From a virus: DNA of 22,343 bases. Under the pieces are notes generated by a model that made no database searches, was not told where the DNA came from, and saw only the letters and a program-made list of their open reading frames with translations. The position numbers and the translations under genes are program-made. Where the stretch lies: the UHGV virus genome UHGV-0208881; one strand, 5' to 3'. This document shows, in pieces, positions 1 to 20,155 of the stretch. The first letter of the stretch is position 1, and each line of letters begins with the position of its first letter.

Positions 1-1
1 T

Positions 2-37
2 AATAAGCAACCTCCTCTGTTAGGAGGTTGCTTATTA
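2..37 (-). terminator. Perfect 16-bp inverted repeat (stem TAATAAGCAACCTCCT, 5-nt loop) about 30 nt downstream of the tailspike stop; probable end-of-late-operon hairpin, with any U-tract lying beyond the window edge
   Basis: Read directly: bases 1-16 are the exact reverse complement of bases 22-37. No T-run follows on the plus strand; the minus-strand tail is outside the window. Confidence 0.4.
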
Positions 38-68: not shown

Positions 69-2486
69 TTACAATGTAATGTTTTGCGGCATGTCTGTAT
101 TCGCCTTATTTGCTGCTGGGTACTGGCATGTAGCAGTCGAATTTGTTGTCGAGTTATCCCCGAACCACAATTTGTTCTGTGACGCTATCCCTGACACTGC
201 AGATCCAGAGCACTGAATGACGTTAATTGCATCCTTAAACATGTTGTCAGCAATTCTGATATTCTCATACTGTGAAAGCCATGGAGTTGCTCCATCATCT
301 ATCAGCATTGTTGCATTTCCTGCCGTTCCAGGGGTAGATGATGATATATAGTTTCTAGAAAATTCTGCATAACTAGTTCCTGTTGCTTTTGATACCCCCG
401 TTTGTAATTGATCAAACAAAAAACCGCCTATCTGGATGTTGCCTCTTACAATAAGGGACCTTGGTGTATATCCTGCCGGATGGAATTTAACAACTCGAGT
501 GCCACAATTATAGAACTTGTTTTCTATAAAAGAAGCAAGGCAATTTGATGAGCACTTAATCCTGATTAAAGATGGTCCATTTGTGAACTCATTTCCTGTT
601 AATGAAATAAAATTCATTAAACCGACATTAGTGGATGTCATAACATCAATGAATGGCATTAAGGAAAAACCTGAGTAATAAGAAACTTTGTTATCTATTA
701 CTCTTAGCTCTGTTGCTGCCGATCCTGTTGCAAAGTTGATATTTGAAATATTGCAATTAGATATTTTTATTCTATTAAAATTTCCAACAGCGGCAAAACC
801 AACTGATGATGTTGAGTCAGATCTAAGTGTTGCACCATTGAATTCAATGCCACTGTTTGATGATATGTTTGATGAATCTTGAGCAAACATGAATGTTGTT
901 CCAGTAGTGGCAATTACCCCGCCAATTATCTTAAATTCACAATTGCTCATTTGCGCGTAATTGGTCATGAACAATGGTGCTATCATAGTGTTATTATTAA
1001 GTGATATAATAGCAGACTCAATAACAACACCAGGAGTCCCAATTAACATAATGCGATCATAAGCTCTGATGGTGTTACCAGAAGCAACAAGAGATCGCAT
1101 CCACCCTGTATCTATCCAAGGAGTTGTTGATGTACCAGGTACAATATGAATGCCAACACCTTGAGTTTGTATATTATTTCCAGAGACAGTAATCTGCCCC
1201 CAAGGAATATTTCCGTTTGATCCTGGCATATCAAGAACAATTGCGTTATCTAAAACGTCAATATTGTTACCTATAATTGATAAACGTGTAAATCCACAGC
1301 GACCTTTTATACATCCATTGCCTCTGGTATTAACTCTATTCTTCAGTGAGTTTCCAATTACAGCGATATCTTCAACCAAAGCTCCCTCGCCTGTTGCATC
1401 CCATGTGGCTCCAGCGGTGTACACAGCGTGATCATACCATCCATCCATTGAATTGCCTTGGATGCGAATATTGCGCATATTGCCACCGATGCATGATCCA
1501 GGTGAGTCATAGAACACGCAATCAAATATCAGAACGCCACCGAGTGAGTATCGGTGATCAGACCAAGTGACATTAGGCACTTGTGTTTTAACCCCATCAG
1601 GGGTGTTGTCATATGGTTCAGCGTTTGTCGGACATACATCTATATATCGTGTTTGGTCAGGAATAGATGTACCTGAGCCAGAAGCACCAACCTCCATGTT
1701 TCTGGCATTTCCATCAAATCTTAGGCCGTGAATAGAGATGCTTCCAGTTGCTCCTGACGCAACCAGCAAAATATTTGAACGGTCCTGGTTAGGGTCAATA
1801 TCTGTAGTTGAACCTGTTACAAAATGTGACCGCTGACTTCTGACGAGCGTTGCCCCTCCATCACCCCAAATAGATGTGCATCCTGTCCATACGTTTACCT
1901 TTGCATCAAACACATAGTCTCCAGGAGGGAAAAATACACCACAACCTTTTTCTGCTGCCTCATTAACAGCGAGTTGAACAGATGCGTTGACGTATTTAGT
2001 TCTATCTCTTGCAAATACTGATGCCATTTCATCATCAGTCATATATTTTGTAGCCAGAATACTTGGTGTCTTCTCTACATATTCATCAAGTGTTCCATAT
2101 CGGGTGTTTACAAGAGAACCATTGCCATTAGCTAATTCAAGGCGCAACTGGTCAGGATCGTATTTCAGTACATTAGGATAATAGAACTGCTGTGCCCCGT
2201 ACGCATCATAAACAGCCATAGAATGGCCTTGCACAGTTACGAACTTGGCAATCTGCCCGTTATATACAGGATATCCTGCAGCGTTAATGATGATTGGTTG
2301 CGAAACAGGAACGTGAGAACCATCTTCGTTCTCTATATAAACCTGAATCTGGTTTTCAGGATTTACCGGGTCAGTGTCAATTTTACCGATATAAATTTTT
2401 CCATTGGCTACGGCTTTAAAAGAACGCGCCATAGTGAAGAGTTGCGAAGGCATACTCACTACAACATTGGCTGTAATGTCTGTCAT
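69..2486 (-). CDS. Tailspike protein: P22 gp9-like head-binding N-terminal domain (about 115 aa) fused to a different right-handed beta-helix (pectate-lyase-like) receptor-binding/glycanase domain
   Basis: 805-aa ORF. N-terminus [11 protein letters not shown]...VLKYDPDQ matches remembered P22 tailspike head-binding domain; remainder is rich in GN/IxGN repeats typical of beta-helix tailspikes and does not resemble the P22 endorhamnosidase body. Last gene of the operon. SD GGAG upstream of ATG. Confidence 0.85.
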
Positions 2487-2650
2487 TTAATTTGCTCCAG
2501 ACGTAGCAATGCGGAACAAGATGCAACTTGCCCGGCATTGCACTAATGTCAGTTATGATCTGTTAATTATGAGATGAGTCTATGCAAAGAGATCTGTTGA
2601 ATATTGCGTTCTACATATTTGGTTTTTGCACGTTCCTGGTGTTTGCGAAA

Positions 2651-5044
2651 CTATTCTGACAACGCATCAGACTTAGCGCCTTGGGTCAGCGCGTTAATGG
2701 CCTTTTGCGCCTGCTGCATGGCTTTCTCAAACGCTGTTGATCCGCGTGGGGTGTTTGCCATTCGGAGCATTGCATTTCTGAATGGCTCGCTCTCATAGGC
2801 GCGAGTAAGAAGTCCGTAGCTTACTGCTGCGCCAGTTGTTGCAGGGTTCATTGCCGTCCCATACCCGATAATGAACGGGATGGTTTGCTGGCCTGTGGGT
2901 GTTGTTACAGCCGCTTTTGCAGCCTGCTGCGTGGATTGAAGGTAGTTTTTCAATCCTTTCAGATAAGCGGCTTCCTGACCTTTAAATGTGATTCCAGTCT
3001 GGTTTTGCAGGATGTTAAGCTGTCGAAGGAACTGGTCAGGGGATCCGCCAGATTTCTCCATCGCCTTTCCAATGATGCCATTGCGCATTTGCGCCCTGCC
3101 AACACGACCAACTGAGTTATACAGAGTCTTAATTTCCGATTTGTTCTTGCTGAATAGCATGTTGTTGACAACTTCCGGCGTCAGGTCGCCTTTCATGAGA
3201 ACATTCTTCAGCCTGGTATTCTTTAGTTTCTCCGCTTCGTCAGCGTAGACGGCATTGGCCTGCTGATATTTACGGAGAGTATCGTTGCCAAGATTCTGAC
3301 CAATGGCACCATTGATATCTTCGGTCATCGCCTTGTAAACTCGCTGAATGGCGGCATCGGAACGGTTTGGTAACACTGGTCGCTCCCCCTTCACGTCCAT
3401 TCTGAACTGGCTGCGCAGGTCGCTTAATTGCTTCAAATCCAGATTTACCGGACCATCAGGGCCAGCATTGCGAACAAGCTCATCACGATAGGACTGAAGT
3501 TTTGAAATAGTCTCGCTATCAGCAACCTTACCAAGCTTCTGCAGGTTAGATATTTCTGTATCAATCTGCTGAATTGCTCGCGCAGGCTGAATGTTTACTC
3601 CAGCCATAGCATTCTGAACCTGCTCCAGTCGATTACCGGCTGCACGACGAATTCCTGATGTTTTCGCTTTAAGGCTGTCAATAACAACCGCTGGGTCATA
3701 CTCACCGAATTTATCAGCAAATCTCTGCACCAACTGGCTTCTCGCTTCCTGTTGCGTTGCTCTCATTCCGCTTGTGCCAGCCAGAGGGATATTTTCTGCT
3801 GTAGTCTGCGCCATTTTTCCGACGCGGGAAGTTGGTTGTAACAGGTCTGTGGTGTGAAGAGGAACTCCTTCACGCTCTGCAAATCTGATAGCCTGCTGCG
3901 CTTCTGGCGAGATAGCGCCACGAACGCCACGATAAGCAGCACCTAATCCACGTCCGGCAGCGTTAATAGCACCGCCAGCAAGTACACCAACGCCTAAATC
4001 GGTGGCGAGTGCTTCCGCATCATCTTTCGCACTATTTGCAGCAAGTGATCCAACTGCGTTTCCTGCTAGAAGGCGAGTTGCCCCCTGAGCAATTCGACCA
4101 GCAAGTGTTGGTGCCTGTGTTGCCGCTCTCTCAACGCCAGCAGGAGTGAGGTAAGGCAATGCTTCGGCAAATACCCTTCCCTCTGTCGTTTGTGGAGTCA
4201 GCGCGCCTTGCTGAAGGCCAAAGTCCTGCTCTAATCCCTGCGTTGTTACTCGTGGTGCTGGTTGATATGTACCATCGCCAATGCCGAGTTTACCGCCAGC
4301 CCAAGCCGCCGCGCTTGTTACAGCATCAGTGAGTTCAGCAGGTATGTTCGCTACGTTGATTCCTGCCTGTAGTAAGCCGCGCCCGGTTTCAGCAAGTCCA
4401 TTACCAAGGTCAGACATTATTCCGCCTTGCTGCTGAACAGGTTTCGGTGCGACAGAACTTACGGGTTGAGGTGGCTGCTGACTGGCTGCCTGCTGCTCAA
4501 TCTGAGCAAATGGATTATTTGGGTCTGACTGCACGCCTGATGCCGATACTTGTTCGGATGACTGTGCTTCCAGTTGTGCAAACGGGTTGTTAGGGTCTTG
4601 CTGAGGATGTACCTTTGCAGAGGTGGCGCGCTGTTCGACTGTTGAGTCTGTCACCGGGTCACCCGCCCATTGAGCAAAGCGATCATCAACGTAACCGCGG
4701 CCTTCAGGTCCTGGCGTATATTCACCACGCTTTGCCTTCATAACGTTGCCGGGACCGTCGTGATAAGCCTGAAGAGCGTCACGCCAGTTACCAAACTGCT
4801 GGTACATCTTTGCCAGATAGCGCGCGCCAGCGTCAGCCTGATATTCGGGGTTTTGCATTTGCTCATCGGTATAACCCATATCACGCCATGTCCCAGGCAT
4901 GACCTGAGTCAATCCTACAGCCCCGGCGGAGCTTACTGCGGCAGGGTTGTAAGAAGACTCCTTGGCACCCAGTGCAGTCATCAACCCTTCTGGCACACCG
5001 TAACGTGCGCCAGCCTGCTCTAACAAATCACGGTAATTAGCCAT
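2651..5044 (-). CDS. Ejection (injection) protein, P22 gp16 position, with N-terminal soluble lytic transglycosylase (SLT) domain
   Basis: 797-aa ORF immediately after the gp20-like gene. N-terminal motif AKESSYNPAAVSSAGAVGLTQVMPGTW fits the SLT family catalytic region (ES...GAxGLxQxMP). Followed by a Q/P/A-rich linker with a tandem repeat and a long C-terminal domain. Position matches the third ejection protein of P22-like phages. Confidence 0.8.
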   Translation of the reverse strand: MANYRDLLEQAGARYGVPEGLMTALGAKESSYNPAAVSSAGAVGLTQVMPGTWRDMGYTDEQMQNPEYQADAGARYLAKMYQQFGNWRDALQAYHDGPGNVMKAKRGEYTPGPEGRGYVDDRFAQWAGDPVTDSTVEQRATSAKVHPQQDPNNPFAQLEAQSSEQVSASGVQSDPNNPFAQIEQQAASQQPPQPVSSVAPKPVQQQGGIMSDLGNGLAETGRGLLQAGINVANIPAELTDAVTSAAAWAGGKLGIGDGTYQPAPRVTTQGLEQDFGLQQGALTPQTTEGRVFAEALPYLTPAGVERAATQAPTLAGRIAQGATRLLAGNAVGSLAANSAKDDAEALATDLGVGVLAGGAINAAGRGLGAAYRGVRGAISPEAQQAIRFAEREGVPLHTTDLLQPTSRVGKMAQTTAENIPLAGTSGMRATQQEARSQLVQRFADKFGEYDPAVVIDSLKAKTSGIRRAAGNRLEQVQNAMAGVNIQPARAIQQIDTEISNLQKLGKVADSETISKLQSYRDELVRNAGPDGPVNLDLKQLSDLRSQFRMDVKGERPVLPNRSDAAIQRVYKAMTEDINGAIGQNLGNDTLRKYQQANAVYADEAEKLKNTRLKNVLMKGDLTPEVVNNMLFSKNKSEIKTLYNSVGRVGRAQMRNGIIGKAMEKSGGSPDQFLRQLNILQNQTGITFKGQEAAYLKGLKNYLQSTQQAAKAAVTTPTGQQTIPFIIGYGTAMNPATTGAAVSYGLLTRAYESEPFRNAMLRMANTPRGSTAFEKAMQQAQKAINALTQGAKSDALSE
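4491..4612 (-). repeat. In-frame tandem repeat (two copies of about 75 bp / 25 aa, DPNNPFAQ(L/I)E.Q...) in the linker of the SLT-ejection protein
   Basis: Protein shows QDPNNPFAQLEAQSSEQVSASGVQS followed by DPNNPFAQIEQQAASQQPPQPVSS; the matching DNA repeats are visible on the plus strand near 4491-4526 and 4566-4602. Confidence 0.5.
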
Positions 5045-6382
5045 TTACTGCCCCAAAGATGGAAGATATCCGTAGCGATTAATGAAGTCGATTGACAGCT
5101 CGGGGTGCTGCTTCAGGTAATCTATAGAAGCCTGAGGCGCTTCCACTCGCTTGATACCGTTTTGCTGAACGTACTTACCAACCGCCTCATTACGCTTCTG
5201 GTTGAGCGTGTTCAGGATGACGCCAGCGTTGCGACGAAAGGACTCCTCGCTCTGCGAGTTCTGCAGCGAACCAACAGCCTGGTCGAGCTTTTTGCCCTCG
5301 GCATCAGAAAGTGCGCCCATGCCTCGCATGGCCTGAACCGCTGTCAGGTATGCTTGTGATTTAAAGGTATCAAGTCGTGCCTGAGTGTCTGCAGCCTGTG
5401 AGCCTGGAACGTTGGGGATTACTCCGCGTAAGCCTGTAATGCTCTTAAGTGAAGGAGAACTAACGATATCGTTCAGAGTGAACATGCTGGTTGTGAGGGT
5501 GTTGATGCCGTCTTTGTAGCCATCATTTAGCGCTTGCTGCTTCTGCTGCAACTGCTGGTTGTTGGCTGCTATGCGGCTCTGTATTTCCTGGCGCTTCAGG
5601 TCGTTAGTTTCTGCTGATAGCATCCGGTCAAGGCGCTTATTTTCGTTGTTAATGCGGTTTGTTTCTGCGTCCAGATTAATGCGCTGCTGACCTAAATTCG
5701 CCTGGATATCTTGTCCGCGCATTGTGATTGCCTGATTCCGAGCGGCGGTTTGCGAATCCAGATCCTGACCGCGCATGGTAACCTGGCGACCCTGCATTTT
5801 ATCCTGTAGGTCAAAGTATTTTTCGGGCCCGAGACTGTTCATCCCCAGGTGATCGACAAATTCGCCGAACTGCCGCGGGTTCTGTTGGTACATCTGAGCG
5901 ACGTCCTGAGGATTAACGCCAACACGAGCTAACTCACCGGCGTTGTTTTGCAGCCATGATTGCATTGCTTCTGGAGACGATGACGCAAGGCGAGCGCCAG
6001 CCGCTAAGGTGCCTATAGAATTGCGTTGGTCTTCGTCTGCCCACTTCATACCAGACTGAATCTTCTCTAATTGACGAGGATATTTGGTCATCAGATCTCG
6101 CACCTGCTGTCGATCACCGGACTGGATGGCTGCCGCATATTCTTTTTGGAATGCAGCATCCGCTTCCTGTTGCTTTGCGGCTTGATATGTTTGAGCGACA
6201 CTACCAAGTCCCTGCAACGCCTGAAGGCCGATGTTATTGCGACCTGAACGCTCCATTTCGTTGTTCTGGCGAATATAGGCCAACGCCTCACTTACATCAC
6301 TTGCCTTTGGCGCATTTGAGTTTTGCCCACCGATACCAGCAAGAAAACCGCCTGAGTTGATTCCTTGTTGCCAAGTAGCCAT
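5045..6382 (-). CDS. Ejection protein, P22 gp20-like
   Basis: 445-aa ORF in the conserved gp7-gp20-gp16 position; Q-rich coiled-coil-like sequence with an internal TMRGQD(L/I) repeat; start adjoins the stop of the downstream gene. Confidence 0.8.
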   Translation of the reverse strand: MATWQQGINSGGFLAGIGGQNSNAPKASDVSEALAYIRQNNEMERSGRNNIGLQALQGLGSVAQTYQAAKQQEADAAFQKEYAAAIQSGDRQQVRDLMTKYPRQLEKIQSGMKWADEDQRNSIGTLAAGARLASSSPEAMQSWLQNNAGELARVGVNPQDVAQMYQQNPRQFGEFVDHLGMNSLGPEKYFDLQDKMQGRQVTMRGQDLDSQTAARNQAITMRGQDIQANLGQQRINLDAETNRINNENKRLDRMLSAETNDLKRQEIQSRIAANNQQLQQKQQALNDGYKDGINTLTTSMFTLNDIVSSPSLKSITGLRGVIPNVPGSQAADTQARLDTFKSQAYLTAVQAMRGMGALSDAEGKKLDQAVGSLQNSQSEESFRRNAGVILNTLNQKRNEAVGKYVQQNGIKRVEAPQASIDYLKQHPELSIDFINRYGYLPSLGQ

Positions 6383-6391
6383 ATTCCCACC

Positions 6392-7066
6392 TTAAAACAA
6401 TGATCCAAGACCACCGATAATACCGCCACCAATAGCGCCAACAGCTGTACCTATTCCAGGCACCACAGAGCCAATCATCGCCCCTGATGCCGCACCGCTC
6501 ATGGCACCGCCCAAAGCTGATTGCAATCCTGATGGTCGGTTAGCATTCGCCGCAGATGCTGCCGCCTGCTGTTGATACAATTGGCTGACGTTGTTAGCGT
6601 AGTTCTGTCCGGCGTTTGCCTGACCTGTAAGAGCACCAAGGCCGATATTTGCCAGATTGTTGTAGTTGTTCATCTGACCTGACAGCCAGTTTTGACCGAG
6701 TGTAGGTGCGATTGCTGCCAGCTGGTTTCCGGTTGCTGTAGAGCCTAATCCACCCGTTGCCTCTGCTGCTGCCAGACTCTGATAGCGCGCCTGACCAGCA
6801 AGGTCTTTGTACTGCTGAGAGTTGTAATACTGGTTAAGAGCCTGACCTTGCCCCTGAAGAGAGGAAAGATTTTGCAACTGTGATACGTACTGCTGAGCGA
6901 GTGGCGTGAACGGTGCAAGGTTCTGCATGTTCGTTTGCCACATTTCACGCTGCAATTCGATGCCCTTTTCAGTTGCGCGTGCCTGGGCTTTTGAACCGCC
7001 ATCACTGCCACCTTTGCAGTAAACAGTTTTGCTGAGGTGCTTATTGGCAATCTGGAAAATTAACAT
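6392..7066 (-). CDS. Ejection protein, P22 gp7-like, glycine-rich hydrophobic C-terminus
   Basis: 224-aa ORF, AGGAG SD 7 nt upstream of ATG, C-terminus SGAASGAMIGSVVPGIGTAVGAIGGGIIGGLGSLF. Overlaps the 3' end of the gp14-like gene by 26 nt. Confidence 0.75.
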   Translation of the reverse strand: MLIFQIANKHLSKTVYCKGGSDGGSKAQARATEKGIELQREMWQTNMQNLAPFTPLAQQYVSQLQNLSSLQGQGQALNQYYNSQQYKDLAGQARYQSLAAAEATGGLGSTATGNQLAAIAPTLGQNWLSGQMNNYNNLANIGLGALTGQANAGQNYANNVSQLYQQQAAASAANANRPSGLQSALGGAMSGAASGAMIGSVVPGIGTAVGAIGGGIIGGLGSLF

Positions 7067-7520
7067 TCTTTAGCTCCTCGTATTTTGAGCGCGGTAACTG
7101 ATAAATCGTGATGCCTACAGGCTTTCCATTGCTGGTATAAGCATCATCAAGGTGACCAACACGGGTAGCGCCAAGCAAACGGATAATTGCCCGTCCGTAT
7201 TTCGTGGTGTCAGGAACCATGGTGATGCTGTTAAGGAATGGTGAGTTTTCGAGAAGCCATTTGCAGAATAATCGATGCCCTTGCAGTGCATATTCACCAC
7301 GGAATCCGGGGTCGTACACCGCATGGCATTCAACAACGCTATGCCAGAAGTTACGCACTTCATGAACTCCAGCCAGCACTAATCCTTCGTAGATGCCGAG
7401 ATATACCGCATCAGTCTTGATGTAGTATTTGTCTCCACTGTCTACGATATTTCCCGTGTTTGCCGGGTTGTTGAGGAATTCTGCAAGCTTCACCGGGTTA
7501 TCGATGAGCTTTATGTGCAT
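7041..7520 (-). CDS. Head/tail assembly protein, P22 gp14-like
   Basis: 159-aa ORF in the conserved position between the needle gene and the ejection-protein genes; start overlaps the upstream stop (TAATG). Confidence 0.75.
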   Translation of the reverse strand: MHIKLIDNPVKLAEFLNNPANTGNIVDSGDKYYIKTDAVYLGIYEGLVLAGVHEVRNFWHSVVECHAVYDPGFRGEYALQGHRLFCKWLLENSPFLNSITMVPDTTKYGRAIIRLLGATRVGHLDDAYTSNGKPVGITIYQLPRSKYEELKNVNFPDCQ

Positions 7521-8221
7521 TAGTTGATTAATCCATGTGTTCGTAAGGCGTCTTCCAGTGCTTTGATGCGCTGCCGCGCCTGCTGTAAACCTGTAGCCAT
7601 AGCGGAAACTTCAGACTGCGTATACGTGGTACTGACCGTGTATGCCTGGTTAGCGTTGAATGCGCCGAGAAGTGCCGTTCCGGTTGCTGCTGTCCATCCT
7701 GTCTGACGAGCACCGATAACCTTGGTGCCGCCGACTGAATAGGATGTTGTTACGTTGAGGGGGGATGCCAGCGATTGTGTTGCTGTGGCTGTTTTCGATA
7801 CGTAATCGTCCTGCAATGCAGAAATATTTCCTTCAGCCTCCGTCACTCTACCATCAAGAGCACTGACATCAGCCTGCAAGGTGACTATTTCACCTTCAGC
7901 CGTGGTTAGTCTGACATCCAGCGACGCGATTGCATTGGTATTTGCAGTAATACGGATTTCATGGTCGTCTACGTCGATGCGGAGCTGACGAATTCTTTCT
8001 TCGTGATCAACCAGAATCACATCCTGCTCATCGTTCCTGACTTGTGCATCATAAGCGCCCTGTCCGGCCTCGTTGGCCTTGTTAGCCACGTTACCAACAT
8101 CAGTTCCCTGTGCGATAACGTAAAGCAGATACGACTGCGAGAAGATATTGCGTGGAAGGATTGATGTATCGAGCCGCGTCGCCTGCACAATAACAGGGGT
8201 GTTGAGATTCGAATCAGCCAT
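7520..8221 (-). CDS. Tail needle / plug protein, P22 gp26-like
   Basis: 233-aa ORF (same length as P22 gp26). N-terminus [18 protein letters not shown]...ILPRN and heptad-repeat middle region match the remembered gp26 trimeric coiled-coil needle. Confidence 0.85.
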
Positions 8222-9639
8222 TACTCAATCCTTATCTGGCAGCCAGACAGAGTTACAGGTGACTTCGTGATAACGCGCAATTTGAAGCCGACATTTTTCC
8301 TGATGCGCCCTACTCGCTTCCACAAAACACGCTTGTCGTAAACGAACGGTTCATTCTGCTCAATCATCTGCTCACGACCGTAATTGATGCCGTCAGTGGT
8401 TGCAGAGAGGAACAGGCGGTCAGCGTACTGCGCAACACCAGTCGATGATTCCAACTCCAGATCAAAGCATCTGGCGTTATCCGCTTTGAACAGTGGAGTA
8501 AACAGCAGGTGTTCTTGCTGTAGCCCATACTGGCTGCTGATATCGAACTGCAATTTCCCGGTCACGGATTCCAGCTTATCGCCGCACGTTATCTGATTGC
8601 CTTCGTAAATGAAGTCGATAGCGCGGTACACATCGTCATACAGGCCTGTTTTCAGCACACACCATTGCGGACCATTGGCACTTGAAGATGCGTCGTATAC
8701 GAGGACATGGCGCGGAAGATGGATAATCAGCAACTCATGCGCATCAAATCTCAGAGACTCCATCACGCCATCAGCCAGTTCATCAGCAGTGTAGGAGCGT
8801 AGTATTTTCTCAATACTCGCGCTGGCGATTGGTGATATCTGACCGGAGCCGATGATGTATACAGATGGCGCACCTGTTGCCGGATTGCTGATGAACGCAT
8901 ACGAATCAGCGAACGGTGTTTTGCAGTAAGTCCCGGCAATACCTTTCTGCACCATCAACGATGGCTGGGCGACATACAAAGCAGCACCAACGGTGGTTGC
9001 GCCAGTCAGGGAGAAATACTCAATCGTCGATGAACCAAAGCAGACGATGAAGTCTCGCCATGTGCCGATGCCGATGATGCCGTCAGGCTGTGATTCTGCC
9101 CGATATTGTGCGCTGTAGCGGTCAGGATGCGATTCGTCTTCAAGGTCAGTGATAAACCATGAATCAGTGCCGTCTTTTGACCACGCATAACGCCCACGTA
9201 AGCGAGTAATGTCACGAACAGAACCTAACTCATACTGCGTGAATCCGCTGTCTGTAGGCCAGTTTGAGACGGTTTTAACCGTGCCATCATAGCGATACTC
9301 GACCAGTTGACCATTAACGCCTACCGCCTGTGATGTTCGACCATGCGCCATTGATACGCGACCACTTCCGGCAACATCGCCGACTTCACTTTCTCCTTTG
9401 TAGAGCTTGCCACCACACACGCGATAAACAGCACTCTGTGCCATGTTGTACTCGACGCCGCGAGATACACCGTTCACATCAGAACGTTTGGCAATGCCCG
9501 GGAATGAGCGAAGATATCCGCTGCTGTTAAGGATTTCTTTGGGGGTTGCCAGCATATTCACTGGCAGATAGTCGATATAGTCGGCGTTTCGGAAGTCTTT
9601 ACCGACACCTTTCATAAGCGGAAGTTGCTGAATCGGCAT
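8221..9639 (-). CDS. Tail hub / head-completion protein, P22 gp10-like
   Basis: 472-aa ORF (same length as P22 gp10). N-terminus [49 protein letters not shown] matches remembered gp10. Confidence 0.85.
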
Positions 9640-10139
9640 TATTCGCTCCCGTTATCGCAAGGTTCCTTTCGGTGGAAGTAATTCCAACCGTTCCACTTCG
9701 CCAACTGATTACCGCTACCAATAGGCATACGGTTTGGATAACCGGACTTACATTTAGCGGCTTTTGCTCTGTCCATTGCAGACAGTTTGACGAGTCGCTC
9801 TTTCCCGTATCTGGCAGTGGTTATAAGTTTTGCAGACGCTTCCAGCGCATAATCTGGAGCAATGCGGCAGGCAAGGTTGAAAATGACGGCATTGATAGCG
9901 TTATTTGACAAACCGTGCTCATCGCCAGGATCCGGAGCGACATCTGCATCAGCGAAAATGTAGCCAACGTTGATACCAGGTGACGCATCACCTCCAAGCC
10001 ATTCAGCCATCATCATTTCAAGGTCGTTGACGCCGTCTTCCATGGACTGCGGTTCGACATCGGTTAACGTGGCATTTGATGCCACACCGAGCTTACGTAA
10101 TGCCGCAAGGACTAAATCACCCTTCGTTGTCAGGTTCAT
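9639..10139 (-). CDS. Tail accessory / head-completion protein, P22 gp4-like (start taken at internal Met, 166 aa)
   Basis: ORF track gives 9639..10208 (189 aa), but the Met at 10139 ([21 protein letters not shown]...) gives a 166-aa product matching remembered P22 gp4 length and N-terminus. The upstream ATG has no usable SD. Confidence 0.8.
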
Positions 10140-10347
10140 CTGCTGCCGCCTTAGGTTTTCGACCAGGCTTTTTACGCTGTTTTTCTTCTGGCTCTGGCTC
10201 TGCAACATCCTTCAAAAGGTCATCAGGATGTGAAAACCAGCCAGCATCCAGATATTCCTGAAGCTCTTCGGCTTTCACGATTTCAAAGTCGTAGCCAACG
10301 CCTTTCCACTTCTTCATGTCGCCATGACGAAAGATCATGTGTGTCAT
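10117..10347 (-). CDS. Small hypothetical protein between coat and gp4 (about 76 aa from the SD-supported Met), highly charged K/P/E-rich C-terminal tail
   Basis: ORF track 10117..10395 (92 aa) runs through the coat-gene terminator hairpin. The ATG at 10347 ([10 protein letters not shown]...) has GGAGA 5 nt upstream. C-terminus [27 protein letters not shown]. 3' end overlaps the gp4 start by 23 nt. Confidence 0.4.
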
Positions 10348-10360
10348 GCTTGTCTCCAGA

Positions 10361-10384
10361 TAAAAACGGGAGCCGAAGCTCCCT
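10361..10384 (-). terminator. Intrinsic terminator / attenuator just after the coat gene stop
   Basis: Minus strand reads GGGAGC-TTCG-GCTCCC (perfect 6-bp GC-rich stem, UUCG tetraloop) followed by G-TTTTT-A, a few nt after the coat TGA and just before the next SD. Confidence 0.6.
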
Positions 10385-10391
10385 CTGGTTA

Positions 10392-11687
10392 TCACGCAGT
10401 CTGGTTAGGCAGACCAACACCAATTGCCTCTGGCCGTACAGCACATGCTGAATACCACACAGCAATACGGCACTTACCAGACAGAGTATTGATATCACCC
10501 TGCGTTGCGAAGATGCCGTTAACACCAATACCAGGAATGCTGAAGGAAGACGTTTTCATGCCAGCAAACAGTTCATGGGTTACCGGAATCGGCTGAGACA
10601 GCAGGCGGATTGAGTCATCAGCCCAGAACACGTTAGCGGTGGTTGTTGCCACGTTCAGAACGTTTACCGGAGTGGAATCAGCAAGAGAGGTGTTTACGTT
10701 AGCGTAAGCCTTCTCTTCTTTTGTCAGTGAAGAGTCATCAAGCGCAATCGGTTTCGGCGTGATTTCGATGTGAGTACTATCGATCACACGGGTGATTGAG
10801 AAAGTCGCATCATCAGTCAGCACGTTCTTCGCCATCTGAGACAGGAATTTCACACCAGTGAAGCTGATTTTGTCGCCGCGCTTAAATCCGGTGGTGGAGG
10901 ATACGGTCACCGTTGCAACACGGTTGTCGACGTTCTCCTTGTTACCATCGGTATCAAGGGTGTATGCCTGCGGCTTAAACTTCTGCGCTCCAGACACAGT
11001 TACACCAGTAGCGGTTGACTTGGTAACTGCCGGAAGTTTCGGTGAGCGAAGAATTTCATCAAAGCCAGCAATCTGACGCTGAATAGTACCGTTGCGATAC
11101 GCTTCTTCAGGAACGCGCCCAAAGATGTCACCATCTACCAGGTTGCGGCCTGCTTTGCGGTAATCGTCAGGGTTCAGGAAGTAACTGATGCCCATGTCGC
11201 GGTTTAGCTCACGGGAGAACATCAGGCGCTCTGCATCAGACACAAAATCCCAGCCAGACAGGCCAGTAGATGGACCAATTGCGCGGGTATCGTGAACAAC
11301 AAGCGAGCCCATTTCAGTTGCCTGTTTGGCAATCGCTGACTCAATGTTATTCGCCAGTTTTTTGGCGGATGCCTGGATGCGGCGACGGTAAGAACGCTCA
11401 TCACGCAGGTCATCTGCACGAAGCTCGAAGAAATCGTTATCCGGATCGCCCATGTTGCATTTCACGGAGAGTTCCAGAATCCCGGTTGCGTTGCCAGTTA
11501 AATCCCAGCCAGTCTGGGTTGGCGCTTCCTGCTCAACAGGCATCCACACGGTGTTGCTTGAACGCTGCATGGATTCTGCCGGAGGGGTGTATTTTGTCAC
11601 TTTGGACGCCATTGGCGTCAGGTTCTGGACGGTTTCGATGATTTCATCCAGAGCATACGTGACCAGTTGACCTTCATTTAATGCCAT
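10392..11687 (-). CDS. Major capsid (coat) protein, P22 gp5-like
   Basis: 431-aa ORF (P22 coat is 430 aa). N-terminus [10 protein letters not shown]...DEIIETV and C-terminus [13 protein letters not shown] match remembered P22 coat. Start overlaps the scaffold stop. Confidence 0.9.
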
Positions 11688-12598
11688 TATCGAATTCCTT
11701 TATTCAGTTGCGCCTTAAGCTTGCGGTACGTCTCTACATCCCCTTTGTTTGCTGCCGCTTCCATCTGCTTTTCAATCGCAGAGATATTTGCAGCAACAGC
11801 GTGCCCCTGAATGGGTTCATCAGGTAACGGGGCTTCTGAAACAGGCTTGGCTCGAGGCTTGAGAGTTAAACGTTCTGACAGTCGAGTGAGTTCAATCAGC
11901 GCGGATTGCCCGTCCATCGCCAGCAACTGGCGTGTTTTCTCAGGATTAGCACCAAGGTGATACATGAGAGCAGCGGATTTCTCCGGGAAGAGGCGCATGA
12001 TGTCGGCACCGACTGCTGGCGGCACCAGTTGCATGAATGCATCCTCTTTCTCCTGATAGTCAGGGATATTGAGCTTTTCCGCTGCATCGTAGTGCTTACG
12101 GGCGGCCTCGACGTATTGCGCTGATTGCTGGGTGAACTCCTGAGTTTTGCGGCCCTGCTCGGCGACAGCCTGGCTTCGTGCGTCCATAGCCTTGATCTGC
12201 CATTCACTGTTTGCCTGCTGGAAGGCCGCCAGTGCGCGGCTCTGGTCATAGTCGTACTTAGCCAGTGCGTCTTCGGAAAGATAATCGTTAGGGTCTGGTT
12301 GTTTTGGTAACTCAGGACTCACCCGCAGGTGCTCCGGCAACTCTCCACGCTTAACCGCTTCCATCTGCTGCTCAAGCTCACGCTGGCGTTTGCGTTCGAT
12401 GCGGCGACGGGCAAATTCAGCATTAGTTGCCGGGTCTTGTTTTGGTTTCTCATCGTCTTTCAGGACAATCTCGAAGCCTTCTTCCTGACCTGCGTTGTCG
12501 TTGGCATTATCGACAACTAAGCCATCAGCAGATGCCGCTGCATGATTGCCGGGCAGGGTTAATTCTTCAGAAGCCTGAATGTCGGTGGTTTGTTCCAT
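11687..12598 (-). CDS. Scaffolding protein, P22 gp8-like
   Basis: 303-aa ORF (same length as P22 gp8). Matches remembered gp8 over the central [26 protein letters not shown] block and the C-terminal coat-binding region [11 protein letters not shown]. Confidence 0.9.
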
Positions 12599-12611
12599 GA
12601 TTAACTCTCTC

Positions 12612-14777
12612 TTATTGAGGTGTCTCGGCTACTCCGCCGGAGGGTATTTGAACTTGACGCATAAGATTCGCGAAATCCATGCGTTGTGAATGAGTCTGGT
12701 CTGCATCTTTAAGAAGCAGCTCAGCGTTAGCACGAGCATCTTTGCTGCGCTGTTGCTGGAATTGACCTACGAGCTTGAGGTACTCACGCAGTTCTGCCTG
12801 CTTGTCGAGGTCCATATTGTTGAAGATTTCCGCAATCTTCGCGGCGTTGAGTTGGTTTTGTGCTTCAACCTTGGCAGCTTCAACCTGAATCTGCGCCTGT
12901 TGGTTCTCTGCCTTGAGCAATTCAGCCTGACCTTGCAGAAGGATACCCTGCGCCTGAATTTGCTCTGCTGATGGCTGCTGCGGCTGCTGTTGCGCCTGCT
13001 GCACCATCTCCATCTCTTCAGGTGTTTCTGGTTTCTTCAGCCCCATCATCACCAGTTGCTTGTTCGCGTACTCTCGCATCATCTCGACGCCTTTACCGTC
13101 AAGCAGCGTGAAGTATTGCAGCATCAGCATCTGGAACTCTGGAGTACCTTGCGGAACCTTGGTGAGCAACTCCTGAATCTCTGCGCGGTTCTGTTCCTTC
13201 ATACTCTGGAAGGATGGCCCAACGTCCGTATAGCACTCATAGCGACCGCGAATGTCGTTGAGTGTGACCACATTGCCGGACTGGTAATCGACAACTTGCG
13301 CGTAGAGTTGAACGTCTTTCTCGCTTCCATCTTCGAGTGTCAGCGTTACATGACGAGGAACGTCATAAATATCGTTGACCATTGAGGCATAAATCTCGCC
13401 ATCACGTCGCATTGCGGTAGCCAGGTTATCCTGAAACACGTATGTCTCAAGGTCTGCCCGCATGTTCAGTTGATTGACGGTATCGAAAGCGACCTGACCA
13501 TTTGCCGCCTGCGCATCCACGCCAAGACTAGCCACCTCTTTCACTGCGTTGGTGGCAGCCTCAAGCATGTAAGCGTTGGCTTGCGGCACTTCAGGGTTTT
13601 CCATGTAGGAGATTGGACCAATCGGCAGGTCGTTACCGTTTTCATCGGTCCTGTTCTGCAGATAGTACGGATAGTCATCATTTCCACCGTACATGTATTC
13701 GTAGCCTTCGATTTGCTCAGGGAAGAAGGTCGGTTTCTTCTTCGGTGAACGAGCAACAATATCGGCGTTGAACGACATGATCATGTTACGAAGGCGTTGA
13801 CCGTCTTTCGTCAGCCTTACCACGCCCTCGTAGCACTCCTTGTCACCAGCGAATGACCATTCGCCGTACACAGGAACGATTGGGATATGCTCTCCAGCTA
13901 TCTTCTCGCGGTCTTTCAGTATCTGCGTGCAGGTGATGATCGACTTATACACACGCCGACGCTTGACCTTACGCTCTGCTACCTTAATGAATCCACGATT
14001 AGCCAGGTCGTCGATGACGTCTTTGATATCCTGCTGGTAATAGCTGACCGGCTCACCTGTCAGCGGGTCGCGGTAGATGAAGACCTTCTCTTTCTTCTCT
14101 TCGACCTCGTAATACTCAGCGACGTAGACGACATCATTCGATACCCACGGAAACAGCCATGTATCGTTCGGATTCTGGAAAGATGGCAAGGTGTCCGGAT
14201 CAATACCGTAATCCTCTGCGAACTCTTTCCAGCCATTGCGCGACAAGGCGTTAATCACCGTGCAGTGCTTAGCGTCGCTCTTATCCATCTGCTTGCTGTT
14301 GGCGTCCCATATGACGTGTGAGCAGGCTTCATGAATTGGCAGGCGTCTGATTACCTGATTGTTGCTTGTTGGGTCGTTGTCTTCGTACTGTGTGACCAGA
14401 CGCCATGCACCAACGCCGGACTCTATCTGCTCACGAACGCCAACGTTAACGGCAATCTTTGCCGTGTTATGGCGCATATCAGTACGATACATCCCCATCA
14501 ACACATCGGCTGCATCAGGATTAGCGCCGTCTTTGGGTCGGAAGAGAACGTCGATAGGGTTCCGGCGCATCTCTGCGACCAGTTTCCTGACCACCGGGCG
14601 AACAACATCGAATTGTCCGCGATATTGCAGGGTGGTGTAGTTTGATAGCCAGTCATCCCATTGCGACACTCGGCTAAAATACAGGTCATTTGTCGCCTCG
14701 GTTCTGGCTTCATCGCTCGCCATCCAGTCTGCGTCAAACTTACACAGAATGGAATTGAGTCTGTTTTCGTCGGCCAT
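12612..14777 (-). CDS. Portal protein, P22 gp1-like
   Basis: 721-aa ORF (P22 portal about 725 aa). Conserved blocks [40 protein letters not shown] and the long C-terminal coiled-coil barrel region. Start ATG is directly adjacent to the terminase stop. Confidence 0.9.
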
Positions 14778-16277
14778 TTAAGTTCTCCGTGCGATGGGCC
14801 TGATTGGGGCTGGTATCTTTTTCTCTTTTGGTTTTTTGATGTCACGCATCATTTTTGCGAAGCGGCGCATCATGTATGCATAGCGAACGGCTGAGAGAAC
14901 GTCGTCGTTAAGCTTGACGATTTTCCCGTTTTCATCACGGTGATAGAGGCGGAACTCCTCAAAGAATGGCTCACAGGTGTTGAATACTTTGAAGCGACCA
15001 TCAAGCATCATGTCGCGCAATTCAGTGATGCCTGGCTCAACAGCGTTACCGCCATCAGGCCATGTCGCATGCTCCTGCAACATCATAAAACCAGCGTCTG
15101 CATACTGCCCTTTGAGCTGCTCACCGCCGCCCTTCTCATGCTGGTTTCCGTCATGAGGCCATGCGGTTGGCACTTTATGCGCCCATGATTTAACAGCTCC
15201 CCACGCCTGAACGGCTGTCTTTTCTTTCGCCTTCCACACGCGTGAAACGTAGATTGTGTCTGCGTCCTTATCCCACCAAAGCTGAACCTGCGCCTGAGGG
15301 TGATCCCATCCGAAATCCATCCCGCCAATTACGTAGAAGTGATCAGGGCACTCAAACGGCTGACACTTAATCGTCTCTTCCGGTATCTGGAAGATTCGAC
15401 CGCTACCCATCGTAGGAATACCGCGAGCACGCGCCTCTCTCTCATGCTCGGGATAGGATGCGATGATTTGCTCTTTCTGCTCGTCGGTGTAGTGCTCAGC
15501 GTCATAGATGGTCATGTTGACCACTTTCTGCGACTTGCTGGGATTCTTCAGGAACTTGGTAACAACGTCAGACATCCCCATCAGCGGGGTAAACGTCAGA
15601 ATTGAGAATTGCCCGTATTTGTTGGTACGGGTAAGCCCTTCGCCATAAATGCTGTATGGTGGTTCTTCGTCAAACCACACGCCATGGATTGTGTCACCCT
15701 GCCAGCGAGCGCGGCCTTGCGAGTATGGCTTGAAGTAGCAGATTGAAATGCCATCTTCAACGCCATCAGCCGTGTGATGCTTAACCAGAAGATGATCAAC
15801 AAGGTTCGGAAAGAAAGGAGACTTCTTCCAGCTAATGATGTCTTCTTTCGGTATGGAACCGTAGCCAGGCTCATCATTCTCTTCAATACGACCGCACAGG
15901 ATGCGTTGAGTCGTTTTGGTTACCGTCTCGTTTGTCTCGCCACCAATCCAGAAGACAACAGGCTCATAGAAACGCTTACCTTTCCACTCCCCGCCATATT
16001 TACCATCAGCAGGATAGCCTTTTGTGCCCGGATAACGCCCGGTAAGGTGAAACGCGACTTCAGCAGCACCAGTAAATGACTTGCCAAGCTGGTTACCAGC
16101 CATAAAACATCGCTCTGGATAGTCATGCCCGGCGTCGATGAACTCACGCTGTTTGCTGTATGGCGTAAATTCATATAGCAGGTGTGTGTTCCGGTAGTTC
16201 TCTTCTTCTTCGAGTAGTTCGAGCAATTCGATTTGCTCTTCGTCGCTCAGGTTATCAAGAATCGCGTCCAGTTCCAC
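14778..16277 (-). CDS. Terminase large subunit, P22 gp2-like (headful packaging ATPase/nuclease)
   Basis: 499-aa ORF (same length as P22 gp2). N-terminus [37 protein letters not shown] matches remembered gp2; Walker A-like GNQLGKS. Confidence 0.9.
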
Positions 16278-16749
16278 GGTTGAATAGCTCCTTGATACGA
16301 GAGCGCCGTTTATCGCGATCTCCCTTATCAGGTGTCACGTCTTCAACTTGCGACTGCTCTTTGAGGCCCAAATCACGGGCGATGATGTTAGCGTTGAGAA
16401 GGTCAGCGGCTGCGCCAGAGAATTTCTGGTCGTAGATGACCTGTTCTGCTCGCGTAACGACTTCAGATAAATCTTCTCGCAGGCGATATGTGCGCCATGT
16501 TTCAAGTGTCACATCAATGAACAGAGTGAGGCCTGTAATAGTCATCGCTCGCATCTTGGCGATAGGCTCTTGTATCACTTCACCCTGATACGAGAACGCC
16601 TTCATCTCCCATAGCGGGTTAGCTTCTACCCACTCGAAGTATTCACAACAAGCAGCCCACAGCGCCTCAGGCGATTCGAATTTAGGATTTCGCCCATGAC
16701 TACTGCGGGCCTCCCAAAATCGGTTGCCCTTTGGTGCTGCCATATTCAT
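16255..16749 (-). CDS. Terminase small subunit, P22 gp3-like; true start possibly at the third codon (16743), giving 162 aa
   Basis: ORF begins [24 protein letters not shown]; remembered P22 gp3 begins [10 protein letters not shown] and is 162 aa. 3' end overlaps the large-terminase start by 23 nt. Contains the pac sequence. Confidence 0.85.
16449..16476 (-). other. pac site (headful packaging recognition sequence) inside the small-terminase gene
   Basis: Minus strand reads GAAGATTTATCTGAAGTCGTTACGCGAG, matching the P22 pac sequence as I remember it, in the codons for EDLSEVVTR. Consistent with P22-type terminase and absence of lambda cos/Nu1/A. Confidence 0.6.
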
Positions 16750-16766
16750 CTCACTTAATCGTTATT

Positions 16767-16946
16767 TCAGGTTAAGGACTCTTTCGCGCCTTCAATCAGT
16801 TGCTGCTTCAGCAATTCGAGTGTGCCAATCGCCTCGCATAAACTGATTTCACCATCGTAATCATGGATGACGCTTTCCAGCCTCTCGTATAGCTCTTGAG
16901 TAATTGGGAATTTCTTCTCCTTACCCAAATTGATTACGCGGCTCAC
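16767..16946 (-). CDS. Possible small ORF (59 aa, GTG start) between the 80-aa ORF and the small-terminase gene; not in the ORF track
   Basis: Hand translation of the minus strand: GTG at 16946 preceded by GGAG about 6 nt upstream, 1 nt after the TGA of the upstream ORF; product VSRVINLGKEKKFPITQELYERLESVIHDYDGEISLCEAIGTLELLKQQLIEGAKESLT, stop TGA at 16767-16769. Fills an otherwise empty 198-bp gap. Confidence 0.3.
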   Translation of the reverse strand: MSRVINLGKEKKFPITQELYERLESVIHDYDGEISLCEAIGTLELLKQQLIEGAKESLT

Positions 16947-16947
16947 A

Positions 16948-17190
16948 TCATGCTCCGGTGGTGAACAGGTCTAACGCTTCCTTCGATTTACGCACCGCTT
17001 CAAATGTGCGGATCGTGATATCTGAATTAGCGCCACCTGACTGGAAGTGAATTTTGAATAGCTCAAGCTTCAGTTCGTCAGTGCCAATGAACTGAAATGC
17101 TTCCTCTGCGGCTGCGTTCTGGTTCATGACCAGCTTGTAAATCTCTAACTGGAATTTCTGTTCTTCAGTCATGGGAATAATCTCTGCCAT
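16948..17190 (-). CDS. Hypothetical small protein (80 aa), function unknown
   Basis: ORF with GGAGCC SD about 6 nt upstream of ATG; acidic, helical-looking sequence; co-oriented with the late operon. Confidence 0.55.
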   Translation of the reverse strand: MAEIIPMTEEQKFQLEIYKLVMNQNAAAEEAFQFIGTDELKLELFKIHFQSGGANSDITIRTFEAVRKSKEALDLFTTGA

Positions 17191-17215
17191 TGTTGGCTCC
17201 GTTTATCCGTTAAAA

Positions 17216-17237
17216 GGGATATCAGTTAAGTTATCCC
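17216..17237 (-). terminator. Weak candidate hairpin (GGGATA-N10-TATCCC) followed by TTTT on the minus strand, about 25 nt upstream of the 80-aa ORF start
   Basis: Perfect 6-bp inverted repeat read from sequence; only four T follow on the minus strand, so terminator function is uncertain. Confidence 0.25.
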
Positions 17238-17523
17238 GTGTAGGGTATAAGCCATTATCAAAGCCACTCTGTAGGGAATGGCTTTTGTGATGGCATCACT
17301 TACTCTTTACGCTGCTATCCCACTCATCCCGGAATTTTGATGGGTTATTGAAACCTTCTGCTGACATAACAACTCCTTCAATGTTTGGCTGAAATTAGGA
17401 TGTCTTTCCATCAGTCCGCCACCACAAAGAATCTTTTTTGCCATAAGGCAGGAGGTTCATCTTTCAGTGGCTGCCAGTGTTATTTCCCCACTTACTGGCT
17501 TGGGTTGTTTCGCTGTACTGCCG

Positions 17524-18066
17524 TTAATTAGTGAGTCCGGGGATTATGGTTTGCCCGTGCTGTTCAAGGCGTTCAATTCTCGCCAGTAGCTGAGGCTTCT
17601 TAATTTTTCCCCAGCGATTAAGCAGTCGACCTGACATGCTGGCAACATCCTTCTCTTTCATGTACTCCAGCATTACGGCATTTCTCTCTTCTTCAAATTG
17701 ACGATGACCAACCTGAAGCATGGCGTACATCCAGTTAAATGCGTTGATGTAAGCAATTTTGATACGCATTGCTTCTTTTTTGGTGTAGGACATAACCAAA
17801 AGCATCAACCCATCCTTGCGGAGACGGTAGAATTTTTGCGGCTTACCATTCTGTAACTCATTGTTTTTATAGCAAAGCTCAAAGTTGAGCTTTGTATCAA
17901 ACTCAGGAGGGCAAGCTTCTATGGTTCGTTCAATGTCACGAACTACGTTCTTCGGCAGCTTTCCAAATGCTTTTGCCACCATAAAAGAATCTGTAACCGG
18001 ATCGTTGTTTGCCACAAAAATCAGATCTCGGAAATCAATGCCGTTAACGATAGTTGGATAATGCAT
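17524..18066 (-). CDS. rha: Rha-family phage regulatory protein (antirepressor-like)
   Basis: 180-aa ORF. Motifs VTDSFMVAKAFGK...NVVRDIE and KDGLMLLVMSYTKKEAMRIKIAYINAFNWM fit the phage pRha domain consensus as I remember it. Sits between Rz and terminase, as P22 Rha does. Confidence 0.8.
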   Translation of the reverse strand: MHYPTIVNGIDFRDLIFVANNDPVTDSFMVAKAFGKLPKNVVRDIERTIEACPPEFDTKLNFELCYKNNELQNGKPQKFYRLRKDGLMLLVMSYTKKEAMRIKIAYINAFNWMYAMLQVGHRQFEEERNAVMLEYMKEKDVASMSGRLLNRWGKIKKPQLLARIERLEQHGQTIIPGLTN

Positions 18067-18210
18067 CAGTGATCACCTTTTAGTGATGAACCTTGTCACA
18101 CAGGATTCCGGCCCACAGAAAGGCACCGATCACCAAACCGGCATCCTCAAGGGTCATCCTGAAAGGTTCTGTGTTCATAAGTCGCGCGTGTGAAGCGCGT
18201 TTACTGCGGA

Positions 18211-18238
18211 CATAAAAAAGCCCCGCATCGCGAGGCTC
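18211..18238 (-). terminator. Intrinsic terminator downstream of the lysis cassette
   Basis: Minus strand reads AGCCTCGCGATGCGGGGCT (8-bp stem including one G-U pair, 3-nt loop) followed by TTTTTTAT, about 30 nt after the Rz stop. Confidence 0.55.
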
Positions 18239-18269
18239 ATTAAATTGACTTTGTGATTTGCAAAAAAAT

Positions 18270-18707
18270 TTATTTCAGGCACTGAGTCCTGATGTACTCC
18301 TGTAGGTAGTTAACCTGCGCGGTTATCCTGTCGATTCCACTTCGGAGACGGTAATAATTGAGTTCAGCATCTGCTGTAAGTCTTGGGCTTTCTCCATCGC
18401 CCATGCCGCTGGCTCCGGTCGTTGACTTTGCACAGGTGGCGGCGACTTGCAGGCGCTTACGCCCAGCAGAAACATCAGCACGGAGACTTTCGATAGTCGC
18501 GTTAGCATCAGCAAGCTCCTTTGTGTATCTGGCGTCGAGTTCTGCTACGTCACGTTGACGCTCCTGCATGTCAGCGATTATGGATGTGGCTTTATCGCGC
18601 TGCTCTTTGTAGGTCATGGCGTTATCACGGTAATGATTAACAGCCCATGACAGACAGACGATGATGCAGATAACCAGAGCGGAGATAATCGCGGTTACTC
18701 TGCTCAT
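18270..18707 (-). CDS. Rz: Rz-type inner-membrane spanin (i-spanin), 145 aa
   Basis: N-terminus [30 protein letters not shown] (TM segment) as in lambda Rz / P22 gp15; start overlaps the R stop (ATGA). Beyond about residue 35 it differs from lambda Rz as I remember it, and the 145-aa length equals P22 gp15. Confidence 0.85.
18323..18514 (-). CDS. Rz1: Rz1-type outer-membrane lipoprotein spanin (o-spanin), embedded in the +1 frame of Rz
   Basis: 63-aa ORF wholly inside Rz in a different frame; signal peptide [22 protein letters not shown] with lipobox ending in Cys, then a Pro-rich mature region ([13 protein letters not shown]). Confidence 0.75.
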
Positions 18708-19487: not shown

Positions 19488-19507
19488 GTCTTACCCCCAA
19501 TAAGGGG
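19488..19507 (-). promoter_or_regulatory. sdi-type stem-loop and SD upstream of the S dual start
   Basis: Minus strand CCCC-TTATT-GGGGG-TAAGAC-ATG-AAG-ATG; the stem-loop abutting the ribosome-binding region is the arrangement known in lambda to set the S107:S105 ratio. Confidence 0.5.
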
Positions 19508-20113: not shown

Positions 20114-20155
20114 TATCATGCCGTTAATATGTTGCCATCCGTGGCAATCATGCTG

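Follow-up and report, generated by a model that had tools for sequence, protein, structure and literature searches.

P22 gp9, Sf6 gp14, HK620 gp9 and CUS-3 SiaK1 are tailspikes in which an N-terminal anchor carries a beta-helix body, and each is encoded at the end of a late operon. Their catalytic residues include E359, D392 and D395 in P22 and D339 and E372 in HK620; lysogenic-conversion genes are represented by gtrABC in P22 and oac in Sf6. The anchor of Lederbergvirus spikes has been delimited as the first 124 amino acids (aa) of the HK620 protein (Pas et al., PMC10408124), and their receptor-binding subtypes track the host O serogroup, for which a one-to-one relation was reported (PMC10408124). 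The P22 endorhamnosidase body is family PF09251, that of the P22 tail spike (PMC3220722), and exchange of spike bodies across phage genera is already well documented (PMC10408124, PMC3220722, PMC11721090). Here we analyzed a 22,343-nucleotide (nt) stretch of the UHGV virus genome UHGV-0208881, hereafter called the window, which encodes a tailspike at positions 69-2486. This protein shares with the four spikes named above the N-terminal domain (71-86% identity), the position at the end of the late operon, and the combination of anchor and beta-helix. Unlike them, it has a body without significant sequence similarity to any of the four. The established picture of tailspike modularity is left unchanged by our findings; what is new is that this rare body family is delineated, with three recombination boundaries, and is found paired with an unusual cassette of Wzx and two glycosyltransferases.

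A P22-type anchor joined to a different body

The window is 96% identical to Enterobacteria phage IME10 (Lederbergvirus) over 72% of its length. Homologs of gp10, gp14, gp7, gp20 and gp16 are recognizable upstream of the tailspike open reading frame (ORF), and ORFs in the window match P22_gp7, Inj_translocase and the stabilisation protein. As in P22-like phages, the tailspike is the last late gene, following gp10, gp26, gp14, gp7, gp20 and gp16, and stands beside lysogenic-conversion genes and an integrase. This is the host-range position of a P22-like late operon, in keeping with the initial annotation, which had called the gene the host-range cassette of the phage. NCBI holds the exact protein as 'phage head-binding domain-containing protein [Escherichia coli]' or 'hypothetical protein', and its 90% cluster also takes in E. 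fergusonii. The gene sizes in the window equal those at one locus encoding the exact protein (L007), where the Phage_P22_gp16 family lies on a 797-aa product and where the spike is followed by a conversion cassette, an integrase and yfdC. Integrase and yfdC follow the spike in every exact-protein contig that extends far enough downstream, a location that we take to be the argW attachment site. Taken as a whole, the explanation that we consider likely is that the tailspike belongs to a P22-like (Lederbergvirus-type, IME10-like) temperate phage residing next to yfdC as a prophage of rare E. coli and E. fergusonii strains. It is extremely improbable that the gene is instead a decaying relic of a defective prophage and has lost its role in infection. 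One relative, in E. coli GDSC2227PM, clearly survives only as a remnant: its spike gene contains an internal stop, and most of the phage genes are gone. The clusters, too, contain many short fragments of 122-260 aa. The ORF in the window, by contrast, is intact and has a ribosome-binding site and a probable terminator, the morphogenesis operon looks complete and is 96% identical to that of IME10, the identical protein occurs on at least 24 contigs, and the gene is under strong purifying selection.

The anchor was unambiguous. Residues 1-113 matched all 113 positions of PF09008 (Head_binding; E 1.6e-67), and identity was 71-76% to the N-terminus of P22 gp9 and 86% to that of Sf6 gp14. The best matches in PDB were the P22 and Sf6 tail-hub:tailspike complexes. 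The spike is attached to the tail hub through this conserved domain; 'head-binding' is its historical Pfam name. All PDB alignments to the P22 tailspike (phmmer) stopped at residue 119, with none running end to end along gp9, and the alignment to full-length Sf6 gp14 was strong to about residue 113, with a weak tail to residue 236. At the DNA level, the anchor is 88-94% identical to HK620, CUS-3, Sf6 and others, and this similarity ends at gene nt 339-357 in 31 P22-like phages (HK620, CUS-3, Sf6, epsilon34 and others). The same break was seen in 1,103 of the 5,426 complete E. coli genomes, which matched the anchor DNA only. It is the known anchor/body boundary of Lederbergvirus spikes, placed at about aa 114-124 in P22, Sf6, HK620 and CUS-3 (PMC10408124). 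No full-length copy of the gene was found by megablast in 50,697 phage records or in the 5,426 complete E. coli genomes, where only its first 14-19% was matched. The gene therefore encodes a chimeric tailspike, as the initial annotation had proposed: a P22 gp9-type attachment domain is joined at about residue 114 to a body without detectable sequence relation to the P22 endorhamnosidase.

For the body (residues 116-805), no significant sequence match was obtained in Pfam, PHROGs, NCBIfam or PDB (no PDB match below E = 1), and PF09008 was the only Pfam family found in the window protein. An AlphaFold2 model built from 22 homologs had a mean predicted local distance difference test (pLDDT) score of 76. 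The anchor was poorly modelled because the alignment mixes different anchors, and from about residue 141 to 805 the pLDDT was mostly 80-95 with almost all secondary structure in short strands. On this model, residues 150-805 are predicted to be a long right-handed parallel beta-helix, the fold of a receptor-binding body and the one anticipated from the sequence in the initial annotation. The GN repeats noted there are real but modest, with 14 GN dipeptides in the body versus 6.4 +/- 2.3 in shuffled sequences, an enrichment of about two-fold. At about 690 residues, the body is longer than that of P22 (about 550), and the modelled beta-helix appears to reach the C-terminus. Foldseek searches against PDB and BFVD returned generic beta-helix matches, or P22 and Sf6 matches driven by the anchor, with low TM-scores; structural neighbours of the body include K1 lyase, K5 lyase, K64-1 S2-4 and the Phi92 colanidase.

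More distant relations appeared at the profile level. The family profile matched GH55 glucanases, the adhesin PfbA and the mannuronan C5-epimerases AlgE6 and AlgE4 through a shared N-terminal cap. PF12708 (Pect-lyase_RHGA_epim), the superfamily of these proteins, was weakly matched by 4 of 7 relatives (best 2.1e-5, below the gathering score), and its threshold was passed by more distant homologs (P0077, 51.9 bits; P0081, 46.7 bits). The window protein itself gave no match even at E <= 10; it lies under every Pfam threshold for this superfamily and is 12-13% identical to its members. Judged from profiles only, the body would fall in the pectate-lyase-like beta-helix superfamily.

Distribution and mosaic structure of the body family

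The body family is rare. An exhaustive profile search with HMMER of 1.84 billion cluster representatives returned only 33 matches at E <= 1e-3, of which 6 reached E <= 1e-30, and a word-indexed search of 5.8 billion proteins returned 24 relatives. E. coli, E. fergusonii, Salmonella and Citrobacter all have members of the family. When 185,579 species were scanned, each through one genome, the single match was in Citrobacter werkmanii NBRC 105721 (L003, 7191-9974); this epsilon15-type spike has a body 77% identical to that of the window protein, indicating that this exact subfamily has spread across genera.

Among phage isolates, a homologous body was found only in Vi01 'tail spike 3' (orf172c) and KEP4 (Kuttervirus, Ackermannviridae), at 38% identity over 99% of residues 116-805. 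These two spikes carry a TSP1/Gp66-type PF18668 anchor and, unlike the spike of the window phage, belong to a branched four-spike complex on a myovirus. Given an identity of 38%, their specificity probably differs from that of the window spike. We found no receptor assignment for orf172c in the literature (PMC3220722; it is not listed in Table 2 of PMC11721090).

The anchors found on homologous bodies were the P22 type (PF09008), the TSP1/Gp66 type (PF18668), the epsilon15/Uetakevirus type, and a T7 tail-fibre N-terminal domain combined with PF18668. The epsilon15-type anchor is 80-85% identical to those of PAS61, epsilon15 and SPN1S; an assignment of the N-terminus of the 913-aa homologs to a StfR-like lambdoid side-tail-fibre was replaced by this identification. 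In epsilon15-type (Uetakevirus) spikes from C. werkmanii (P0006 and P0056), the N-terminal 218 residues form the epsilon15/PAS61/SPN1S anchor and the body is 76-77% identical to that of the window protein, whereas the linker is only 61-64% identical. PF18668 is present in homologs P0004, P0012, P0016-20, P0023 and P0072 and absent from the window protein, which has only the body in common with them and is not of the Ackermannviridae TSP1 type. The metagenomic protein P0072 (906 aa) has two stacked anchor/adaptor domains, the PF03906 T7 tail-fibre domain followed by PF18668, in front of a body matching at E 5e-298. In all anchor types, the shared module starts at 'LRxEL' (residue 115 in the window protein). 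In PF18668 proteins (P0012), this motif directly follows GGVGxGAW, a boundary motif described for Vi01-like spikes (PMC3220722). The body circulates among P22-like, epsilon15-like, T7-anchor and Kuttervirus spikes, without a Pfam or PHROG family or a solved structure of its own.

The body had been described initially as one unit of about 690 residues. It is indeed separate from the anchor, but it is composed of a 36-residue linker, a proximal half and an exchangeable distal half. Segment identities and DNA profiles placed three boundaries in the gene, at about nt 345 (about aa 114), about nt 450 (aa 149) and about nt 1200-1350 (aa 400-450). Beyond the first, other P22-like phages are unrelated to the window gene. 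Around the second, most members of the subfamilies whose bodies are only 40% identical have a linker of 83-100% identity, a value that drops to 47-64% where the anchor is of another type (P0013/14, P0017/18/20/21). The DNA of L001 and L014, the latter a Salmonella prophage with a 40%-identity-subfamily body, is 95-99% identical to the window gene up to nt 450 and about 50% identical after it. This collapse of identity between body subfamilies indicates that the linker is a shared splice site of the body family.

The third boundary separates two lineages. DNA of the P0003 lineage (L012) is 100% identical to the window gene over nt 301-1050 and 58-71% identical beyond nt 1350. For L002, which represents the P0001 lineage, DNA identity is 71-86% over nt 451-1350 and rises to 99-100% from nt 1351 through the downstream flank. 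Since the proximal half matches L012, and the distal half and downstream DNA match L002, the window allele is a recombinant of the two lineages. Compared with L002, the proximal half of the window gene shows 1.9 synonymous substitutions per site (dS; saturated) and 0.05 nonsynonymous substitutions per site (dN), with dN/dS of 0.03, and the distal half is 99.5% identical in DNA. These values indicate that the gene is old, constrained and recently recombined.

Within the distal half, residues from about 441 to 700 are hypervariable, with a peak at 521-600, where amino acid identity is 49-54% within the close subfamily and 23-34% to distant subfamilies; the C-terminal 100 residues or so are conserved. 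A 'hypothetical protein' of the Kuttervirus ECML-4 (JX128257.1, 89493-89828; H64) matched only aa 694-805, at 42% identity. As this match is confined to the last 112 residues, the C-terminal ~100 residues may be a separate module, for example for trimerisation.

Candidate active site and receptor

We searched for conserved residues in two alignments (A3 and A4, of 18 and 14 sequences) that included distant homologs (18-26% identity). G330, D352, H353, Y356, G359, K394 and R396 were invariant in these alignments, and all of them lie in the proximal half. From this conservation, D352, H353, Y356, K394 and R396 probably mark the active site. With a single invariant carboxylate beside His, Tyr, Lys and Arg, the set would be slightly more suggestive of a lyase- or epimerase-like centre. 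None of the catalytic residues of P22, HK620 and Sf6 could be aligned to the body. In AlgE4, we take the catalytic residues to be Y149, D152, H154 and D178. An hhalign comparison of the family with AlgE4, whose query sequence was checked and is 100% identical to 2PYG, reached 95% probability and ended at AlgE4 residue 156. It paired the AlgE4 motif YGFDPHE, at low confidence, with residues 292-298 (PYDNTPDG) rather than with D352, H353 and Y356, and in no alignment obtained was YGFDPHE matched by the invariant WYDHxxY of the family.

We next considered the genes that follow the spike. The same three genes lie after the spike in L002 and in all six exact-protein loci shown, which stand for at least 24 contigs. 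They encode a GT4 glycosyltransferase (convergent with the spike), another, small glycosyltransferase and a Wzx-like flippase, and are located just beyond window coordinate 1 (L007, 12487-16272; also L002 and L006-L011). Their products measure 416 aa, 292-304 aa (with a weak GNT-I match) and 430 aa, respectively. This make-up is unusual for a P22-like conversion module, as it comprises no GtrA/B/C, acetyltransferase or Wzy, and none of the 5,426 complete E. coli genomes carried the cassette. The genes behind the spike differ in other body variants: a GDSL lipase in P0003, gtrA, gtrB and a GtrC-like gene in P0022 (Salmonella Casablanca), an SGNH hydrolase and an acyltransferase in L001, and no cassette in P0011. 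In position and logic, the cassettes resemble the conversion genes gtrABC of P22 and oac of Sf6. Because each body variant has a different O-antigen-modifying cassette, and in view of the reported relation between spike subtype and O serogroup, the host O-antigen is most likely the receptor, by analogy with these phages. The O-antigen locus itself is not contained in the 10-kb flanks of the gene; on the K-12 map, it is hundreds of kb away from argW. As the initial annotation had stated, the polysaccharide specificity could not be read from the sequence, and none could be derived here either.

An unlikely alternative is that the receptor is another surface polysaccharide (a group 1/4 K capsule, colanic acid or enterobacterial common antigen (ECA)), and that the spike is a capsule or exopolysaccharide depolymerase such as the K1 endosialidase of CUS-3 or the colanidase gp150 of Phi92. 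Colanic acid and ECA are common to E. coli, E. fergusonii, Salmonella and Citrobacter, the hosts of the body family. The capsule depolymerases and lyases among the structural neighbours listed above would fit such an enzyme, and the invariant Asp with His, Tyr, Lys and Arg would suit an acidic substrate. However, an invariant common receptor would leave the hypervariable distal half and the several 40%-identity subfamilies unexplained, the neighbouring cassettes are classical O-antigen modifiers (gtrABC-like, Oac-like acyltransferase), and P22-like prophage spikes track O serogroup (PMC10408124).

Several points weigh against an O-antigen-cleaving enzyme with its active site at these residues. 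No alignment places the invariant residues on a known catalytic site, that with AlgE4 stopping before the DH motif, and no characterised tailspike is detectably homologous to the body in sequence. With the beta-helix adhesin PfbA ranking among the best matches by structure and by profile, the body may be a non-enzymatic binder. The cassette type follows the distal-half type of the spike, which fits specificity residing in the distal half, but this match could be plain physical linkage, one crossover moving both. A spike that binds without catalysis and needs the polar cluster for folding, contacts in the trimer or binding of the sugar nevertheless seems to us quite improbable. To our knowledge, all characterised P22-type tailspikes (P22, Sf6, HK620 and CUS-3) are enzymes; D, H, Y, K and R stay unchanged down to 18% identity and fall within one or two rungs, as active-site residues typically do, and the dN/dS of the proximal half also argues against mere binding.

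Returning to the O-antigen as receptor, the spike would be a homotrimer as in P22, Sf6 and HK620, whose beta-helix would bind and cleave the host O-antigen, letting the virion work down to the outer membrane. The conserved proximal half would contain the active site, around D352, H353, Y356, K394 and R396, and the hypervariable part of the distal half (about aa 441-700) would set fine specificity. In the lysogen, the phage's own GT4, glycosyltransferase and Wzx cassette may alter the O-antigen, so that the same spike would no longer recognise it.

A bolder version, conceivable on sequence grounds though we would not favour it, is a new O-antigen depolymerase class, in which a D352/H353/Y356/K394/R396 centre would carry out beta-elimination on a uronic-acid-containing O-antigen, and the distal half would be a portable specificity module that recombines at a conserved mid-gene site and moves along with the matching conversion cassette. 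Such a class would differ from the spikes of P22, Sf6 and HK620, which are hydrolases with two or three carboxylates; if it exists, a single crossover would switch both the target of the phage and the disguise of the lysogen. Identification of the receptor would add one serogroup-to-spike assignment and possibly a new catalytic type. Tailspike bodies are specificity determinants for host-range prediction, serotyping reagents, engineered phages and tailocins, and the three-boundary mosaic, together with the pairing of variant and cassette, is a compact natural experiment on which part of the beta-helix sets specificity.

Gene features and late-operon neighbourhood

The features of the gene are collected in the table below. 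The initial annotation had located the tailspike at 69-2486, and an intact ORF is present there; it is carried on the minus strand, with its ATG start codon at 2484-2486. The plus-strand frame of this interval was rejected as coding, as it is interrupted by many stop codons. The hairpin beyond the stop codon is probably a bidirectional terminator common to the tailspike gene and the convergent glycosyltransferase gene, which starts just outside the window.

Table. Coordinates in the window of the tailspike gene, its parts and adjoining features
Feature	Position	Strand	Description
Tailspike gene	69..2486	minus	Intact ORF, 805 codons plus stop (stop codon 69-71); from ORF list and translation
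GGAG ribosome-binding site	2495..2498	minus	9-12 nt upstream of the ATG; read from the sequence
P22-type head-binding (tail-hub attachment) domain, residues 1-113	2148..2486	minus	PF09008; PDB matches to P22 gp9 and Sf6 gp14
Linker/neck, residues 114-149 (36 residues)	2040..2147	minus	Near-unchanged across body subfamilies otherwise only ~40% identical; second recombination boundary
Proximal beta-helix half (predicted), residues 150-440	1167..2039	minus	Most conserved across the family; holds the invariant polar residues
GWYDHAVY, residues 349-356	1419..1442	minus	D352, H353 and Y356 invariant down to 18% identity; candidate catalytic motif
K394-G-R396	1299..1307	minus	K394 and R396 invariant; candidate substrate-binding or catalytic residues; in motif NRxNxRGNxxxKGR (383-396)
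Distal beta-helix half (predicted), residues 441-805	72..1166	minus	Exchanged as a unit with the downstream cassette
Inverted repeat, 15-bp stem (TAATAAGCAACCTCC ... GGAGGTTGCTTATTA)	1..37		After the stop codon; terminator scan, self-inverted BLAST match
gp16-like ejection protein gene	2651..5044	minus	797 aa

The GC content of the tailspike gene is 40%, versus 50% in the rest of the window (2487-22343). This low value spans the whole gene: the head-binding part has 42% and the distal half 38%.

The gp16-like protein encoded next to the spike carries at its N-terminus a lytic-transglycosylase domain of the SLT type (PF01464, E 2.9e-25, residues 7-110); in other prophages with the same spike, gp16 has 665 aa and gave no SLT match. 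The gap between gene 16 and the tailspike gene (2487-2650) is only 164 nt and holds no immI-type region (ant/mnt/arc). The two IME10 segments that match on either side are about 385 nt apart in IME10 and 78 nt apart in the window. In related prophages, this spot is occupied by Arc/Mnt-like repressors, an HNH endonuclease or antirepressor genes.

The locus in E. coli GDSC2227PM (L001, 6001-8442; NZ_CP135595.1) is a prophage remnant at the same argW/yfdC site. Its spike gene has the internal stop in the head-binding part, is 97.6% identical in DNA to the window gene up to nt 448, and continues with a 40%-identity-subfamily body. The remnant, from which most phage genes are deleted, keeps the spike, the SGNH hydrolase, the acyltransferase and intS, and adjoins a sucrose-utilisation cluster.

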